Origin: a virus
Virus record (IMG/VR): IMGVR_UViG_3300028481_000016
Span: 1 to 33,466 of that record
Length of the DNA stretch: 33,466 nt
Direction: 5' to 3' (one strand)
Shown piece by piece: positions 1 through 33,466 of the stretch (positions within the stretch are counted from its first letter, which is position 1; every line of letters begins with the position of its first letter). The notes below the pieces were generated by a model. It was not told the origin of the DNA. It searched no databases and was given only the letters and a program-made list of their open reading frames with translations. Both the position numbers and the translations under genes were made by a program.

Positions 1-130
1 AAAGCGGATTTTTACCATACTTTTTTTTCTTTTTCCCGCCAGTTTTTTTAAAAATCTTATGTATTTGTAAACATTTCTTTAAAATGTCAAAAAAAAGTGC
101 TTGACAAGCCTTTTTTTTTGTGTTATCATA
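1..130 (+). repeat. Terminal direct repeat (copy 1), matches 33337-33466
   Basis: 1-126 is identical to 33337-33462. Position 127 is C versus T at 33463, then 3 nt match. Consistent with a circular-assembly overlap. Confidence 0.9.
101..129 (+). promoter_or_regulatory. Sigma-A-type promoter of leader/protein module A
   Basis: TTGACA (101-106), 17-nt spacer, TG-n-TATCAT (124-129). Confidence 0.8.
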
Positions 131-135
131 TTCTC

Positions 136-261
136 ATAATGATTGATTGATTTGTTGGTGCCTCAACCGCTGACAAATTAGAGAAAAAGCTTTTTATAAC
201 GTTTAACTGGTTGAGGCAGTTAGGCGTCATAAAGAGCTTTTTCTTATTAAAAAATCATTAT
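136..261 (+). ncRNA. Candidate structured leader RNA, copy A
   Basis: Outer stem 136-144/253-261. Interleaved stems 159-168/209-218 (10 bp) and 182-197/229-244 (16 bp, one G-U). Same layout as 1221-1346. Confidence 0.6.
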
Positions 262-300
262 AAAAGCAGATTGAAAATTTAATATAGAGAGGTGAAAAAC

Positions 301-633
301 ATGGACGCGAGGGAGTTCTATGCCCAAATAGACAAAGCGGATGATGATCTTTACGAATTAATCAGGAGCTTGTGGAATATATGCAGTGAAGCAGATAATT
401 TAAAGTATATTTTTGAAGAAATAACAAGGGGCGCGGAGAATATAAAAGACGAAGAGAAGAGAGAAAAATTCAGTTCTGTATTGTCGTATTTAAATGACCG
501 GTTACACGAGATTAGCGAACAATGTAATGACATTGGCATAGATTTAGACATGGTGCGCGATTGTGATTTTATTGAGCTAGTAGAAGAAGCCGAATATATT
601 GCAAATGAAGAGGAAAAAAAAACCGCTAACTAA
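301..633 (+). CDS. Acidic, predicted helical hypothetical protein; probable distant paralog of 1377-1658
   Basis: ORF 292-633. RBS GAGGTG with 6-nt spacing favours ATG 301. Confidence 0.75.
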   Translation: MDAREFYAQIDKADDDLYELIRSLWNICSEADNLKYIFEEITRGAENIKDEEKREKFSSVLSYLNDRLHEISEQCNDIGIDLDMVRDCDFIELVEEAEYIANEEEKKTAN

Positions 634-718
634 TGGCAATAGTTAGACGGCAAGGTTTTAAAGGAAAGGGGTTGTACCCCAAACCTGAAAAAAAAATGTC
701 ACATATAAATTTTTTTCA
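614..718 (-). ncRNA. Candidate antisense (counter-transcribed) sRNA
   Basis: Minus-strand TTGACA (748-753), 17-nt spacer, GATAGT. 5' hairpin with A/T-tract arms. Terminator stem 623-650 followed by a T9 tract (614-622 on minus). The start position is estimated. Confidence 0.55.
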
Positions 719-791
719 GGTTTTACTATCTCACTAAAAAAAAAGGTTGTCAAGGGTTTTATAAAAAAAATTTTATGGGGGATAAAAAACC

Positions 792-1142
792 ATGTTAAGG
801 GACATGTTCAAAGATTGGCACAGGAGAATACCAAGATTGATAGGCCTTTATGAGAATAAAACAAAAAAAAAATATGACCTGGATATTTTAGAGGCAATAT
901 ATTTGCACGCATTAAAAAAAGAATATGAGCGGAATAAAAAAAAAGGGCTTCTTTTAAGAAATGGCGCATTTGTTACTACTTTATATGATATGTGCGGGGC
1001 AAGTCGACTTCCGCTATATTATCAAGAAAAAGCGATTCAAGAGTTAGAAAATCGAGGATTTATCGAATACGATCCGCTTTTATTTGATAAATACGATGAA
1101 CTCTCAGATAAATGTGTTATGTTTATGATTAAAATTTTATGA
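792..1142 (+). CDS. Winged-helix DNA-binding protein resembling the N-terminus of phage replication initiators
   Basis: Motif FVTTLYDMCGASRLPLYYQEKAIQELENRGFIEY resembles the wHTH of replisome organizers; GGGGG RBS. Confidence 0.5.
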   Translation: MLRDMFKDWHRRIPRLIGLYENKTKKKYDLDILEAIYLHALKKEYERNKKKGLLLRNGAFVTTLYDMCGASRLPLYYQEKAIQELENRGFIEYDPLLFDKYDELSDKCVMFMIKIL

Positions 1143-1186
1143 GTTTATATTATTAGTAATTTACTAAAAATGTCAAAAAAAAGTGC

Positions 1187-1215
1187 TTGACAAGTATAAA
1201 AAAATGTGTTATTAT
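1187..1215 (+). promoter_or_regulatory. Sigma-A-type promoter of module B
   Basis: TTGACA, 17-nt spacer, TG-n-TATTAT. The upstream AAAATGTCAAAAAAAAGTGCTTGACAAG is shared with module A. Confidence 0.8.
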
Positions 1216-1220
1216 ATAAT

Positions 1221-1346
1221 TATAATGATTGATTGATTTATTTGGCGCTCTACCCGCTAAATAAATTTGAGAAAGTGGTTTTTTTCTCCGTTTGTCGGTA
1301 GAGGGCAAGCGGGCAAAAAGACCACTTTTTTAATTCAATCATTATA
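1221..1346 (+). ncRNA. Candidate structured leader RNA, copy B
   Basis: Outer stem 1221-1232/1335-1346. Interleaved stems 1245-1254/1297-1306 and 1271-1285/1315-1329. The 3' AAAAGCAGATTGAAAATTT is shared with copy A. Confidence 0.6.
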
Positions 1347-1376
1347 AAAGCAGATTGAAAATTTGGGGGAGTTTAT

Positions 1377-8171: not shown

Positions 8172-8609
8172 CTATTCAACTACATCATTTTTTATTATAA
8201 TTGGTTTATCACTACCATCAAGTTGTATATCCCATCTATCTCGCCAATTTTTAGAATCTCTATTCTTTAAATAAAACATTAAAGCTGGTACACTCGGGGG
8301 TATATACTTCTTATATATCGTAGTGTTGCCGTCTTTATCAGTCTTTTCTTCTTCTACATAATACCCCTCACACATACGTTTTAAAGCATTTACACAATCA
8401 AATATTGCTGGTTGCAGTCCTTCATAATATGCTCCTTTAAATTTCTCATGTTTACCGCACATATAATAAAAATTACCTTTCGATATTTTCAACACTTTGT
8501 CGCATATATCTTTTATAGACATACCTTCACTTACACATTTAGTCAATAATTTTAAATTAGATGGCTCTAATAATACTTCTTCTTTAAAACTGCTCCCATC
8601 TGTTTTCAC
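8172..8609 (-). CDS. terS: Terminase small subunit
   Basis: N-terminal HTH-like region plus YIPPSVPALMFYLKNRDSKNWRD; directly upstream of terL. Confidence 0.75.
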   Translation of the reverse strand: MKTDGSSFKEEVLLEPSNLKLLTKCVSEGMSIKDICDKVLKISKGNFYYMCGKHEKFKGAYYEGLQPAIFDCVNALKRMCEGYYVEEEKTDKDGNTTIYKKYIPPSVPALMFYLKNRDSKNWRDRWDIQLDGSDKPIIIKNDVVE

Positions 8610-9315: not shown

Positions 9316-9372
9316 AAAAATACCTGACAAATATTTTTCATATTATAAAATAAATAAAGGTGGAATATAAAT

Positions 9373-9771
9373 ATGTTGCCTAACATTAATTTGACAGATA
9401 ATATCGAATTTAAATCACAAACATCAAACACATACAAATTAAACATTAAAAAAAATAATATATCGGGGTTTATAGACGAAATTAATGCAGTAAAACAAGC
9501 GGTATATTTAATCCTTAATATTGAACGTTATCGTTATTTGATTTATGATTGGGATTATGGATTCGAAATATCTGACTTAATCGGTCAAGATATTAACATT
9601 ATACAAATTGAAATTCAAAAGCGTATATCTGACGCTCTAAAACAAGATGAAAGAATTATTGATGTTTACGACTTCATCTTTAAAAAAATAAACAAAATTT
9701 TACATGTAACTTTCTCTATTAATACAATATTTGGAGAATATACTGAGGAAAAGAACTTTGAAATAGCTTAA
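9373..9771 (+). CDS. xkdS: Baseplate wedge protein DUF2634 (XkdS-like)
   Basis: AVKQAVYLILNIERYRYLIYDWDYGFE and DALKQDERI motifs. Confidence 0.88.
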   Translation: MLPNINLTDNIEFKSQTSNTYKLNIKKNNISGFIDEINAVKQAVYLILNIERYRYLIYDWDYGFEISDLIGQDINIIQIEIQKRISDALKQDERIIDVYDFIFKKINKILHVTFSINTIFGEYTEEKNFEIA

Positions 9772-12358: not shown

Positions 12359-12904
12359 ATGCAAAATTATTATTATCAGCCTAATATCAACGATACTTAT
12401 TTAAACCGCTTACAACGTCTTAATCAGTTGCAAAATCAATTTAACAGCCAATATCCACCATATAATAACCCTTTACCATTAAACAACCAAATTATATTTG
12501 TACAAGGCGAAACAGGGGCTAAAGCTTATCAAATTCCAAATAATACAACGATTTTATTAATGTCAAGCGAAGGCAATGAATTCTTTATCAAGACAACAGA
12601 TTCAAGCGGATTTCCAACTATAAGAAAATTCACATTTCAAGAACAGCCAAACCAAGAACAACAACCAAAACAATGTTCTTGCGATTGCCAAAACAACAGC
12701 ACTGCACCTTTACCTTTAAAAGACTATGTAACACAGGAAGAATTTAATAACTTCAAAAAGGAGATTTTAAATTTCTATGAATCCAATTTATCAAATGGTA
12801 AGCCAACAATTGGCAACAAAAAATCCAATGATGGCTACAATGATAAAAAACTTGTCAAGCGGAATGACGCCAAAACAAATGGTAATGAATATGATGAAAA
12901 ATAA
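12359..12904 (+). CDS. Conserved gut-phage hypothetical protein (Q/P-rich N-terminus, FVQGETGAKAY motif)
   Basis: First gene of a block recalled from clostridial phages; GAGGAGG RBS. Confidence 0.7.
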   Translation: MQNYYYQPNINDTYLNRLQRLNQLQNQFNSQYPPYNNPLPLNNQIIFVQGETGAKAYQIPNNTTILLMSSEGNEFFIKTTDSSGFPTIRKFTFQEQPNQEQQPKQCSCDCQNNSTAPLPLKDYVTQEEFNNFKKEILNFYESNLSNGKPTIGNKKSNDGYNDKKLVKRNDAKTNGNEYDEK

Positions 12905-13007
12905 TAATAATCCAATGTTATCTCAGCTTGTGAATATGGCTAATAATGGAAACATAAACAACATAGAAAATATGGCTCGTCAATTGTTTCAGCAAAGATG
13001 TACTTGA
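12777..13007 (+). CDS. Small M/N/Q-rich hypothetical protein, probably 3'-truncated
   Basis: MNPIYQMV...NIENMARQLFQQR, then an abrupt CT-stop at the inferred deletion junction. Confidence 0.55.
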   Translation: MNPIYQMVSQQLATKNPMMATMIKNLSSGMTPKQMVMNMMKNNNNPMLSQLVNMANNGNINNIENMARQLFQQRCT

Positions 13008-13482
13008 AAACAGATACACAAATCAATTAGGGATACAACAAGTAATTGCAAATGACAATAATTGTTGTATGCAGACACAAAATCAAATTCTGAATAGTAA
13101 GTATGATCTGGATAAAGAGATATTACAGAACAGATACGAGAATTCTATACAGACGCAAACATTATCAGGACAATTGGCTCAGTGTTGTTGTGACATTAAA
13201 AACACAGCACATCAAGAGGGAGAAGCAACTCGCGCTTTGATTACTCAAAATATGATTGATAATTTGAGAGATCAATTAGCTGCTACAAGGGAACAATTAA
13301 CCAATGCTAGAAGTGCTAATTTGGCTAATTCAATAATGGCTGATAATGCAGCACAAACACAGACATTGATTAGTTCTCTTTTGCCAAGACCAGTACCAGC
13401 ATATCCTTCTGCGTCACCTTATATGGCGTATAATTGGAGCAACTATTTTAATAATGGTGGTTGCCCGTATAATAACATTTAG
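12997..13482 (+). pseudogene. 5'-truncated Cys-rich (QCCCD) conserved phage protein
   Basis: Frame is open from 12967 with coding-like DVLENRYTNQLG but has no start or RBS. Internal ATG 13069 lacks an RBS. Confidence 0.55.
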
Positions 13483-13636
13483 AAAATTTATTATCTTGCA
13501 TTTAAATCGACCATATTATAAAAAGGGTTTAAATTTGTACTTATTCGCTTAATGATTTAGGGTTTAAAGAAAAAAAGCAATAGCTTTGTAAAAACTTTTT
13601 TTGATGCAACGAGCTGATGAGTCAGCCAAAATTCAC

Positions 13637-13679
13637 AGGGATGAACGTCTGACTGAATTGTTCATTTCTGTTTTTTTTT
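13637..13679 (+). terminator. Terminator-like hairpin directly before the RBS of 13692
   Basis: ACAGGGATGAAC / GTTCATTTCTGT stem followed by a T-tract, then AGGAGG. Confidence 0.6.
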
Positions 13680-13691
13680 AGGAGGTTTATT

Positions 13692-14111
13692 ATGATCGAA
13701 GTTTATACTCAAAATGTAACAGTACCAGCAATGACTGCTATACCTTTTAATAACACGACAATTCAAAAGGGAATAACAGCAATAAAAACTGGAACTGCTA
13801 CTATTCAATTTAATCGTATTGGTGTTTATGTAGTATCTTTTGACGCTTCTGCTTCTTTGGCAGATGGTGGAACAACTGGTGATATTATTTGTCAGCTTTA
13901 TAAAAATGGCTCAAATCAAATTCAAGCGACTACAAGTGCAACATCTACAAGCGAAACAGACATTGTGCATATGTCATTCACAACGCTTGTTCAAGTACCC
14001 CAAAATAATACTTGCAATTGTGCTACTTCTCCGACTACAATACAAATAATGAATATCGGTGTACCTGCTTTATTTGCTCAAGCCGATCTAGTAGTTACTA
14101 AATTATGTTGA
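13692..14111 (+). CDS. Beta-sandwich protein, possibly BclA-C/C1q-like
   Basis: AIPFNNT..IQFNRIGVYVVSF..QLYKNG pattern; AGGAGG RBS. Confidence 0.55.
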   Translation: MIEVYTQNVTVPAMTAIPFNNTTIQKGITAIKTGTATIQFNRIGVYVVSFDASASLADGGTTGDIICQLYKNGSNQIQATTSATSTSETDIVHMSFTTLVQVPQNNTCNCATSPTTIQIMNIGVPALFAQADLVVTKLC

Positions 14112-14121
14112 GGGTGGAAAA

Positions 14122-14589
14122 ATGTATAATTGGGAAGAAATGTTTAATATAATTTGCAAAAAATATACAGGTGAAGCATTAAAAGAAAAATATGGTGCTT
14201 GTATGGAAAAATTTATGCGGAAATTAAAGAATGAAAATCAAGATTTATATTATGAGCTAATGTCTGGTTTATATGTTTTAGTTTTTGGCGAACATTTTAA
14301 TGAAGAACTAGCAAAAGAAGCGGTTGAAAATATGAAAAATGGAGACGGTACAACTGGAGCGCATTGGACATTACAAGAAGCAATAGAAATAGCCAAAAAT
14401 GAAGGAATAAGCTTTAAAAAATTTAACGAATATGATTGGTTTTATGTTTTGAATATGATTTACAGTGATTTTTATAAAGTATTCATAAACAATACAAATC
14501 TTTATGTTAAAACAGCTGTTGAATGGCTGAATGATATTGACGTAACACCAGGTAAAGCTTACAGATACTATATAAAAGTTGTAAAATAA
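14122..14589 (+). CDS. Conserved phage hypothetical protein (HWT..NMIYSD..WLND.D..GKAYRYY)
   Basis: Recognisable conserved motif set; last gene of the accessory block. Confidence 0.7.
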   Translation: MYNWEEMFNIICKKYTGEALKEKYGACMEKFMRKLKNENQDLYYELMSGLYVLVFGEHFNEELAKEAVENMKNGDGTTGAHWTLQEAIEIAKNEGISFKKFNEYDWFYVLNMIYSDFYKVFINNTNLYVKTAVEWLNDIDVTPGKAYRYYIKVVK

Positions 14590-17853: not shown

Positions 17854-18033
17854 CGCGCGCGCGCGCGTATATATATATATCCTTTTATTTTTATATTTAT
17901 ATATTTAGGGGGCGTTTTGTCTCTCTTAACAAGAGAAGTTTGCCTTTTTCAGGTGGATATTTTACCCCCTTTGGGGTGGAGATTTTACCCCCTTTGGGGT
18001 GGAGATTTTACCCCCCCAAAAAACTGTGGATAA
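17854..18033 (+). promoter_or_regulatory. Replication origin module 1: (CG)n(TA)n tract, 3 x 23-bp iterons, DnaA box
   Basis: CG run 17854-17867 and TA run to 17880. GGTGGAGATTTTACCCCCTTTGG repeats start at 17952, 17975 and 17998. TGTGGATAA at 18025-18033. Confidence 0.85.
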
Positions 18034-30752: not shown

Positions 30753-31010
30753 TAAAGAAATACAATGTGGTTTTTAGTAAAGAAATACAATGTGGTTTTT
30801 AAAATATGAGTGGATTTTTTTATGACATATAGTGGATTTTTTTATGACATATAGTGGATTTTTTTATGACATATAGTGGATTTTTTTATGACATATTTTC
30901 TCGAAAGTCCGCTTAGTGTGGGGGCTTTCAGCCCCCCTTAATTCTTTTAAGAAAACCTTAATTATATATAAACGCGCGCGCGCGCGCGCGTACGTAAATA
31001 TATATATATA
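30753..31010. promoter_or_regulatory. Replication origin module 2: 2 x 25-bp repeats, 4 x 22-bp iterons, (CG)n/(TA)n tract
   Basis: TAAAGAAATACAATGTGGTTTTTA at 30753 and 30778. AGTGGATTTTTTTATGACATAT at 30809, 30831, 30853 and 30875. CG run 30973-30990. Confidence 0.88.
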
Positions 31011-31666: not shown

Positions 31667-31918
31667 GTGAGGAAATAGGGGGACCTAAGTGAGGAAATAG
31701 GGGGACCTATCTCTCTTTAATCCTCCTTGTTAAGGACAGTTTCAGGCTCCTATAATCAAGATATATAATCAAGATATATAAATATATATATAAACGCGCG
31801 CGCGCGTACGTAAATATATATATAATATACGTATATAATATATATAGATAGATGTAATGTTTAATTTACATATTAAAATAATATTTGTATTGACTTTTAA
31901 TTTTTCTTGTGTTATAGT
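31667..31918. promoter_or_regulatory. Third origin-like module with no rep gene
   Basis: 2 x 22-bp GTGAGGAAATAGGGGGACCTA (31667, 31689); 2 x 13-bp TATAATCAAGATA (31751, 31764); CG run 31795-31806; promoter TTGACT-17-TATAGT (31890-31918). Confidence 0.65.
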
Positions 31919-32221: not shown

Positions 32222-32659
32222 TTATTTGATAAATAGCCATTTATTTTTTCTTGTTATATTTAACGCGGTGGTTGTTAATTTTGTTTTTACTGTTTGTATA
32301 TTTATTTTACATTGTGCATTTTTTGTCATCAATATTCTTAATTTTTCTATCCACTCCTTGCTTAGATCCTCATTGTTTATTAAAACGTTGTAATACATAT
32401 CATTTGTTATAAATTGCTTGTATATATTCGGTATTTTTATTGTTATTTGGTTGTATTTTTCTGTTAATGTGTCGAATTTTTTTTTTAGTTTTGTGTATTC
32501 GGTAAAAACTTCTTTGCCTTCTTGTGGCATTGTATATAGTTTATTAAACTCTTTTATTTCTTCTTTTATATTTTTAAATTGTTGCGTGTAATAGTCGATA
32601 TCTTTAAACACTTTATTAAAACCATCTTCATATTTTATTTTTAAAACTTCTTCATTCAT
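32222..32659 (-). CDS. Hypothetical coiled-coil protein
   Basis: ORF overlaps the stop of 32656-33078. Confidence 0.65.
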   Translation of the reverse strand: MNEEVLKIKYEDGFNKVFKDIDYYTQQFKNIKEEIKEFNKLYTMPQEGKEVFTEYTKLKKKFDTLTEKYNQITIKIPNIYKQFITNDMYYNVLINNEDLSKEWIEKLRILMTKNAQCKINIQTVKTKLTTTALNITRKNKWLFIK

Positions 32660-33078
32660 TTTACAATCCTCTTATTTTGCATATCTATTAATCCCAGAAT
32701 TATTTTTGTTCCGTCTGTATTCTCGTGCCATATTATCAATGGATTATTTTTTTCTTGTATTTCTATAATATCAATGTACCAATTTTTTATTTCTTCGTCC
32801 CAGTCGTCATAATCATTCGATAGGTCATAGCAAAAAAGCGGGTTACAGTGTTCTAATTCTTTCGTCCATATTTTAATATATTCTTCATATTTCTTTTTTT
32901 CGTTTTCTTCTAGTTCATCTAGAGTTCCAGACAGAGAAAAAGTATATTCGATTTTCTCGTTTATATTTGTTTCTTCTCCGCTTATATCTGGTGTGTCAAT
33001 TTTGTGTTCATCCTCCCAAATATTATTTGCAATTTTTCTAAACTTCTTAAAATAAAAATCTTTCATATACTCAGACAT
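32656..33078 (-). CDS. Acidic hypothetical protein
   Basis: AAGGAG RBS; promoter TTGACA-17-TATTAT at 33296-33268. Confidence 0.75.
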   Translation of the reverse strand: MSEYMKDFYFKKFRKIANNIWEDEHKIDTPDISGEETNINEKIEYTFSLSGTLDELEENEKKKYEEYIKIWTKELEHCNPLFCYDLSNDYDDWDEEIKNWYIDIIEIQEKNNPLIIWHENTDGTKIILGLIDMQNKRIVK

Positions 33079-33142
33079 GATAATTATCTCCTTAAAAAAT
33101 TATTTGCCCTTGACAATATTTTTTTTTGTGAGATAATGACCA

Positions 33143-33219
33143 TCTAAAAATTTATTACCAATATTTTTTTAGACAGTCGGTTTGTAAATTGTTCTCAGCA
33201 ATTTATAAACCTTTTTTTT
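33143..33219 (+). ncRNA. Candidate antisense sRNA against the leader of 32656-33078
   Basis: TTGACA (33110-33115), 16-nt spacer, GATAAT. Hairpin 33143-33173. Terminator 33179-33211 followed by T9. Confidence 0.6.
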
Positions 33220-33336
33220 TATCTCGTAAGATTTATTTCGGGCATTTAAAATAAATCTTATAATTATATAATATCACAAAAAAAACCGCTTGTCAAGAGG
33301 TAAAACGATTTTTTTTTTAATATTTTGAAAGAAAAA

Positions 33337-33466
33337 AAAGCGGATTTTTACCATACTTTTTTTTCTTTTTCCCGCCAGTTTTTTTAAAAATCTTATGTAT
33401 TTGTAAACATTTCTTTAAAATGTCAAAAAAAAGTGCTTGACAAGCCTTTTTTTTTGTGTTATTATA
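33337..33466 (+). repeat. Terminal direct repeat (copy 2)
   Basis: See 1-130. Confidence 0.9.

Follow-up and report, generated by a model that had tools for sequence, protein, structure and literature searches.

The circular element analysed here carries two copies of a structured RNA of about 125 nt at its early promoters. We consider it a genuine, uncatalogued RNA family, known to date only from a single clade of rumen phage-plasmids. Two hairpin loops of the RNA are complementary to each other and appear to act as a specificity code rather than as a passive strut. The sequence leads us to favour, by a little, a reading in which each cassette is a promoter-proximal transcription attenuator, where loop pairing in cis would block a terminator.

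The window, by which we mean the whole stretch of 33,466 nucleotides (IMG/VR record IMGVR_UViG_3300028481_000016), represents one circular 33-kb element, since bases 1–130 recur at 33337–33466. Two Rep3 initiators, accompanied by iteron arrays, are encoded on it, as are an ERF annealing protein and two TnpB proteins. The structural genes include the small terminase (8172–8609), the large terminase, the portal, the capsid and a contractile tail. Circularity, the Rep3 genes with their iterons and the phage structural genes thus identify a phage-plasmid, temperate and of the Firmicute type. The capsid relatives are phages of Clostridia and Bacilli (50–67% identity), and the close relatives are, judged by record names, mostly of ruminant gut metagenome origin.

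Structure and distribution of the cassette RNA

Both cassettes lie on the plus strand behind predicted promoters of the sigma-70 type. Promoter A (101–129) comprises the −35 box TTGACA, a 17-nt spacer and the extended −10 box TG-n-TATCAT, with the predicted +1 at 136. Promoter B (1187–1215) has TTGACA, a 17-nt spacer and TG-n-TATTAT, and its predicted +1 is at 1222. The cassettes (136–261 and 1222–1345) start at these predicted +1 positions. In 31/31 distinct homologs of the first set, the sequence of the closing helix P1 begins with the base 7 nt past the −10 box; one of them has a short duplication of it. With this spacing fixed, the RNA most likely starts with P1. A promoter scan found no minus-strand promoter reading into either cassette.

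The predicted fold is a three-way junction. RNA A is made of P1 (136–144/253–261), P2 (148–160/168–180) and P3, the last divided into P3a (181–197/229–245) and P3b (199–209/217–227) by a 1×1 mismatch (198/228). RNA B has the same arrangement, with P1 at 1222–1232/1335–1345, P2 at 1235–1247/1255–1267, P3a at 1268–1285/1315–1332, the mismatch at 1286/1314 and P3b at 1287–1296/1304–1313. P1 measures 9–11 bp, P2 is a 13-bp hairpin and P3 a 28-bp hairpin, whose single mismatch lies 10–11 bp below the loop in both A and B. Zero to one nucleotide separates P2 from P3. The minimum free energy is −51.5 kcal mol−1 for RNA A (z −8.3) and −57.0 kcal mol−1 for RNA B (z −10.0), and 0/200 shuffles were as good in each case. 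The minus strand of both copies folds approximately 16–22 kcal mol−1 worse than the plus strand, and G·U pairs make up 15% of the pairs.

Homologs were gathered by pattern scans and from contigs reached via relatives of ORF-A (the gene behind cassette A) and of the ERF protein. This gave 125 instances and 38 distinct sequences; as many instances come from near-identical phages, their counts overstate independence. In the alignment of A-type homologs (n=13), 98% of the cells are paired. P2 and P3b are kept and covary among both A-type and B-type homologs. P1 is kept as well, with compensatory change in one divergent relative (L102). The initial annotation had proposed a functional RNA of about 125 nt maintained by compensatory change, and both the covariation and the folding z-scores bear this out. 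The segments on which it was built, namely the shared promoter flank, the closing-stem blocks and the pairs a/a′ and b/b′, are all found in both copies, and the 28-nt 3′ block occurs twice in the window against 0.00 expected. For a/a′ of copy B the pairing needs trimming, as it includes a G·G mismatch and only the central 7 nt pair. That annotation did not include the hairpins P2 and P3b, the U-tract behind P3, or the boxA-like motif described below.

The a and a′ segments are two 7-nt loops and b/b′ form the lower part of P3, so that the a-b-a′-b′ order describes a kissing contact over a nested fold. A competing pairing between CCCGCT (1253–1258) and AGCGGG (1308–1313) had also been proposed. 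Both words are present, but the pairing is imperfect in 17/30 homologs even with free register and G·U pairs allowed, and the bases involved are part of P2 and P3b.

At the sensitivity of our searches the family appears to be confined to its clade, since no matches were found outside the relatives. A covariance-model search, which the initial annotation had suggested, found four copies in L102 and none in 47 more distant phage records or 95 further loci. A descriptor of structure and loop complementarity gave no match across other phage and prophage loci totalling 3.0 Mb, and its positive control on the window worked; there it matches only the two cassettes. When viral and metagenome contigs were scanned with loose patterns, most matches were due to chance, and only members of this phage-plasmid clade folded. 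With blastn, the cassettes matched annotated phages and plasmids only as promoter-flank noise. The view that the RNA belongs to no known family withstood a comparison with Rfam 15, in which the window and eight homolog loci gave no match at the gathering score, C4 and the phage motifs included. An E-value search of Rfam returned only generic hairpin matches far below the cut-off; the RNA may be among the unnamed candidates of a phage RNA paper that lists ten thousand of them (PMC10690425). An HDV-like ribozyme was rejected by inspection, as the nested hairpins and the conserved catalytic bases are missing where they are needed. A CRISPR-repeat mimic was also rejected; only the ATTGAAA end fits.

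Cassette A is followed by a Shine–Dalgarno sequence (289–294) and ORF-A (301–633; together 289–633), which encodes an acidic, helical early protein of 110 aa with no family match in Pfam, PHROGs or Atlas. Behind cassette B, a Shine–Dalgarno sequence and an operon (1365–2553) comprise ORFs of 93 aa (1377–1658) and 114 aa (1651–1995) and an ERF-family single-strand annealing protein (1999–2553). The first genes behind the two cassettes had been taken for paralogs. A comparison of ORF 301–633 with ORF 1377–1658 speaks against this (E=0.67; HHalign probability 0.3%), and in some relatives the protein behind cassette B has only about 26 N-terminal residues in common with ORF 301. The suggested link to the ribosome-binding site fared no better. 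The Shine–Dalgarno sequence lies 20–30 nt outside the fold and is left unpaired by it, and one copy in L102 (L102:4304–4430) has its own promoter, no ORF behind it and the next promoter directly after.

Kissing loops and their code

Loop L1 of A (CCUCAAC, 161–167) is complementary to loop L2 of A (GUUGAGG, 210–216). The loops of B, placed by folding and by the B-type homologs, are CUCUACC (L1, 1248–1254) and GGUAGAG (L2, 1297–1303). Cross-pairing of the B and A loops gives −2.2 and −3.5 kcal mol−1, versus approximately −9 kcal mol−1 for the matched pairs.

The 125 instances were located by promoter and 5′ anchors, not by complementarity. They contain 16 loop codes of 6 or 7 nt, all of which are fully Watson–Crick complementary, with no loop mismatch in any of the 125 instances (38 distinct sequences). 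The L1–L2 spacing is constant at 47–50 nt. Among the A-type homologs (n=13), six of the seven kissing pairs change on both sides while remaining 100% paired, versus 1/13 pairs of P2 and 4/28 pairs of P3. The p-distance is 0.23–0.34 for the loops and 0.02–0.13 for the stems; the loops thus vary 2–10 times faster.

Copies that share one locus always differ in their codes (57 multi-copy loci), and none of 110 cross-combinations is fully complementary. Within a genome, self pairing amounts to about −9.4 kcal mol−1 and cross pairing to about −2.3 kcal mol−1. One identical ORF-A protein is found downstream of three different A loop codes. The fast loops, the orthogonal copies and the single ORF-A behind three codes are what lead us to regard the loops as a specificity code. 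We also considered the loops as guides to other phage sites and rejected this, the loop words being absent elsewhere near the cassettes. A likeness of loop B to a tRNA D-loop was dismissed, as the other codes do not have it.

In every B-type copy, complementarity goes no further than the loops (extension 0/0). In A-type copies the extra a/a′ pairs are two invariant G–C closing pairs, and a pairing of 9–10 nt is possible. A rigid-rod estimate, which is rough geometry, indicates that a cis kiss together with a full P3a would require angles of 60–70° at the 1×1 mismatch. The alternative in the same model is the fraying of 5–7 weak P3a pairs at a cost of 7–10 kcal mol−1, which is about the energy yielded by the kiss. 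Such fraying could permit a cis kiss in the mature RNA, and the model agrees with the kiss and a complete P3a being mutually exclusive.

Predicted terminator and boxA-like motif

The P3 arm is laid out like an intrinsic terminator. An A-tract comes first, followed by a GC-rich base and a hairpin of 49–55 nt (−23 to −30 kcal mol−1), and a U-tract ends the series. The U-tract of A (238–245, 7 of 8 U) immediately follows the GC base of P3, a 49-nt hairpin, and that of B (1326–1333, 6 of 8 U) follows the GC base of its P3; these form predicted terminators A and B. Six to seven U residues are present among the 8 nt after the P3 hairpin in 31/31 variants, and the d'Aubenton-Carafa score is positive in 29/31. 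The tail U residues are kept when the 5′ partner changes (126 A–U, 33 G·U) and never flip, although this conservation may be partly structural because the U-tract pairs with the upstream A-tract. A simple terminator scan did not list P3; its rules leave out long interrupted stems. Altogether, the anatomy suggests that P3 is probably a working intrinsic terminator. The 3′ strand of P1 is located beyond the U-tract of P3, and P1 can therefore be formed only in read-through RNA.

The G(C/G)UUUUU tract of A (189–197) is invariant without covariation and starts 9–13 nt past the end of P2. Within this U5 tract, 30/39 sequences contain TTNTTT, which is the NusG pause motif of B. subtilis (PMC7819879). 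By analogy, we infer that the tract is a candidate pause site, and it may also be a weak hinge of P3a.

A boxA-like motif is found downstream of P1 in both copies (GCAGATTGAAAATT at 266–279 in A; 1350–1363 in B) and is contained only in the read-through RNA. Its consensus, G-N-A-G-N-TTGA(A/C)AATT, lies 7–9 nt past P1 in 124/125 instances. The distance from the motif to the Shine–Dalgarno sequence is variable, and the motif is present even where no gene follows. A core of G-N4-TTGA(A/C)AA(C/T), including the G five bases upstream, precedes the 16S rRNA in seven leaders of Clostridial metagenome-assembled genomes, at a distance of 120–210 nt and in several of them just after a 5′ hairpin; the chance of a match is about 5e-4 per 10-nt slot. 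The boxA of B. subtilis (AUGAUCUUUGAAA), to which NusB binds, has a 5′ hairpin immediately ahead of it (PMC13753749). Two bases before TT, the phage motif has a G, a position at which the boxA consensus, which is Clostridial and may not be that of the host, has a pyrimidine. We predict the motif to be a boxA-like signal, with a layout like that of Clostridial rRNA leaders.

Proposed attenuation mechanism and its alternatives

In the mechanism that we propose, the transcript would begin with P1, and P2 with L1 would form first (+13 to +45). L2 (+75 to +82) would then emerge from the polymerase while the 3′ strand of P3 cannot yet pair. Nested folding gives L1:L2 as the best fold of the 81–89-nt prefix of A, before P3 can close; for copy B it favours L1:L2 at one prefix length only, in a model that cannot score kissing. 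L1 could thereby catch L2 in cis at the polymerase exit, making a closed ring that includes the 5′ strand of P3. The argument is topological: the tethered 3′ strand could not wind two and a half turns around a ringed 5′ strand, and for this reason the full P3 should fail to zip in time. The polymerase would read through, and boxA would load the host NusB–S10 for the remaining operon, protecting the read-through transcript. Taken together, P3 as terminator and the cis kiss as antiterminator stand at slightly better than even in our estimation. A circular Rep3 and iteron element needs a quiet resident state, and we count this in favour of attenuation, together with the antisense-RNA units found ahead of other early genes.

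The further fate of the RNA can be set out more tentatively. Once released or trimmed, it would settle into the stable junction closed by P1. There the 28-bp P3, being rigid, could not reach the loop of its own P2, so that both loops would be free. The RNA could then engage L1 of newly made transcripts in trans, perhaps at the U5 pause; cis pairing would be blocked and termination restored. The time for trans pairing is short, approximately 40 nt of transcription unless the U5 pause is real. Overall, repression in trans by accumulated RNA seems to us possible, at about one chance in three or slightly above. It would have the result that early genes are expressed when the element has just entered a cell and are shut down as the RNA builds up. 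The loop code would decide which promoters and which superinfecting relatives are silenced, giving heteroimmunity between variants. A positive feedback by trans pairing to L2 was rejected by reasoning, the window of approximately 15 nt being too short.

Viewed as a whole, the cassette might be a self-contained, protein-free immunity and timing device in which one RNA serves as terminator, cis antiterminator and, when refolded, trans repressor. The code would diversify under selection so that each promoter or variant has its own channel, and ORF-less copies would widen the silencing range. We hold this full picture with some doubt, at roughly one chance in three.

The same cassette could instead support processive antitermination of the nut or put kind. 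The kissed junction would then be a scaffold binding RNA polymerase, NusA or a phage protein, and together with boxA it would modify the elongation complex, with P3 not terminating. The position at +1 of early promoters is that of HK022 putL (PMC9378689), and the boxA-like motif 7–9 nt past P1 mirrors the hairpin-then-boxA order of rRNA leaders (PMC13753749); the constant loop spacing and the downstream intergenic hairpins with short U-tails are also consistent with it. We nevertheless regard it as unlikely. It leaves the hypervariable loops, the orthogonal codes within a genome and the fixed U-tract after the GC base unexplained. No arginine-rich, N-like protein is present in the window (no ORF reaches 5 Arg within 12 residues), no GNRA-like boxB loop was found, and strong sense-strand terminators downstream are few. 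A fixed U-tract and a hypervariable, orthogonal code, along with boxA, likewise stand against a 5′ stabiliser or RNase III element, for which a plain hairpin would suffice. There, P1 would shield the 5′ end against RppH and RNase J, the loops would be covered by the kiss and RNase III would cut P3. P1 does begin at the predicted +1, P3 (10–11 bp, a mismatch and 15–18 bp) is sized as an RNase III substrate, and the G·U share and the better folding of the plus strand do point to RNA, and still this function strikes us as improbable.

The near absence of a gap between P2 and P3 would allow the two to stack as a rod of approximately 43 bp with complementary end loops. Such rods could assemble head to tail into rings or filaments, as in phi29 pRNA or ROOL/GOLLD cages, the code keeping the assemblies separate. 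The geometric difficulty of a cis kiss in the mature fold, the orthogonal codes and the ORF-less copy agree with this, and in pRNA, itself a three-way junction, two complementary loops join one molecule to another (PMC4201828). Against assembly, the element has an ordinary small and large terminase and a portal, so no pRNA is needed; each genome has two to four copies that differ from one another, all of them placed at early promoters and with boxA behind them; a 49-nt repeat corresponds to 4.5 helical turns and gives no planar ring closure; and the terminator anatomy is not accounted for. We think it quite unlikely. The initial annotation had offered a long-stem H-type pseudoknot or a two-state switch. 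The switch probably stands. The pseudoknot can draw on the 9–10-nt a/a′ pairing of A-type copies and on its transient appearance in prefix folds, but a/a′ are the loops of conserved hairpins, the connectors form the conserved and covarying P2 and P3b, and the pairing is not extended in B-type copies. A translational switch is countered by a ribosome-binding site that the fold does not affect, and a DNA-level single-strand signal by a fold that starts at +1 with the promoter outside it, unlike single-strand promoters, which is also why a single-strand DNA promoter was rejected. Pseudoknot, translational switch and DNA signal together seem very improbable to us.

The RNA would operate much as P4 immunity and pT181 attenuation do, and is a member of neither. 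The C4-type fold of P1 c4 has its targets outside the RNA, both upstream and downstream. In P4 immunity (seqA–CI RNA–seqC), the CI RNA is cut out of the leader and, by pairing with the nascent transcript, makes transcription end prematurely; P1 c4 and Gifsy-1 IsrK are its relatives (PMC4825925). The likeness to P4 CI and P1 c4 lies in the phage-plasmid setting, in a leader RNA of the same strand and, as proposed here, in trans pairing with its own nascent transcript and termination of early genes. L1 and L2 both lie on the same strand, inside the first 82 nt of the predicted transcript. The present RNA differs in its fold, does not match the C4 model and has no outside targets, both partners being loops of one 125-nt unit. 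Unlike in P4 CI, the terminator appears to be the loop-bearing hairpin itself, two to four orthogonal copies are present, the host is of the Firmicute type and a boxA-like motif follows. In the pT181 and pIP501 attenuators a kissing-hairpin contact sets termination versus read-through, and loop swaps change the specificity (PMC3753616). These share the kissing contact and the Gram-positive mobile element with our case; their effector is an antisense RNA, whereas here both loops are on one strand and no antisense promoter was found. Loops of the pT181 and pIP501 type are complementary automatically because the effector comes from the opposite strand; here true compensatory change is needed.

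Other systems are more distant. HK022 put, lambda nut, pLS20 conAn2 and EAR are also structured RNAs behind early promoters, with a boxA in nut as in rRNA leaders (PMC9378689, PMC8191782). None of them matches in sequence or fold, and they are without covarying loop codes or a terminator-shaped second hairpin. The phi29 pRNA is similar in having about 120 nt, a three-way junction and two complementary, phage-specific loops (PMC4201828). In the present RNA the closing helix is short (P1 only 9–11 bp) and the looped arm long, the reverse of pRNA; it is an mRNA leader in 2–4 copies, not a single RNA gene, and the terminase has two subunits, unlike the phi29 motor, which has no small terminase. 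The pLS20 zipper-type attenuator and the EGeRS1 establishment leaders, which also belong to Firmicute mobile elements, use long imperfect stems for attenuation of entry-stage or transfer genes (PMC13401043, PMC8708921). Those are 400–600 nt long and switch by stem extension, without a kissing-loop code.

If the proposed mechanism is true, the cassette would be the first attenuator made of RNA alone whose kissing loop is both the cis antiterminator and the trans repressor contact; its boxA-type signal would also be the first to be put forward for a phage of Firmicutes. The timing of early genes and the heteroimmunity of phage-plasmids would then be explained without a protein repressor–operator pair. 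With 16 natural codes, orthogonal to one another and carried by one fixed scaffold of 125 nt, nature would also have supplied a set of RNA transcription switches ready for use. Should the mechanism prove wrong, there would still be an uncatalogued RNA family in which a tertiary contact covaries unusually cleanly.

Gene exchange at the cassettes and genome rearrangement

Among relatives, the open reading frames (ORFs) behind cassette B have mosaic N-termini. Alignment A4 revealed identical first codons fused to unrelated protein bodies, and the region comprising the cassette, ribosome-binding site and start codon is thus a joint for gene swapping. The divergent relative L102 carries a tandem pair of promoter-plus-RNA units (L102:4304–4646), the first of which lacks any ORF, and the four loop codes (complementary loop pairs) of this genome are all different. 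Comparison of close relatives (L080 with L081; L074 with the window) showed gene blocks that are permuted or inverted, an ERF operon in flipped orientation, and virion genes on both strands. In some relatives, the tail operon adjoins cassette A.

Antisense units and other candidate RNAs

A predicted antisense RNA unit is located on the minus strand at 612–753 (folding z −3.8) and consists of a reverse promoter, hairpins and a U-tailed terminator. Its predicted RNA of approximately 107 nt spans the leader of ORF 792–1142 and the end of ORF-A. Units of this type, in at least two sequence variants, also lie upstream of other early genes in relatives (L074:4400–4550; L080:8320–8490 and 9350–9495; L105:8525–8673 and 9430–9580). 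These predicted units form a second, antisense-type layer of RNA control.

The region 33100–33297 contains a leftward divergent promoter and a structured leader for ORF 32656–33078 (folding z −6.8). Within this leader is a rightward promoter for a predicted terminated antisense RNA of approximately 77 nt (folding z −5.5). The conserved, GC-richer non-coding stretch 3′ of ERF (2554–2900 in the window; L105:10545–10960) folds much more strongly on the minus strand (−92.7 vs. −60.9 kcal mol−1), and could represent a single-strand origin or a further RNA.

Repeats and accessory genes

The (CG)n(TA)n tracts at 17854–18015, 30809–31010 and 31667–31830 adjoin three different iteron sets. The element carries two Rep3 genes. 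The block of four genes at 12359–14589 resembles the spore-coat-like module that is frequent among phages of gut Firmicutes. One of them, ORF 13069–13482, may be truncated, since it encodes 137 residues compared with 252–255 in its cluster. The window also holds two TnpB genes, which are approximately 80 % alike.
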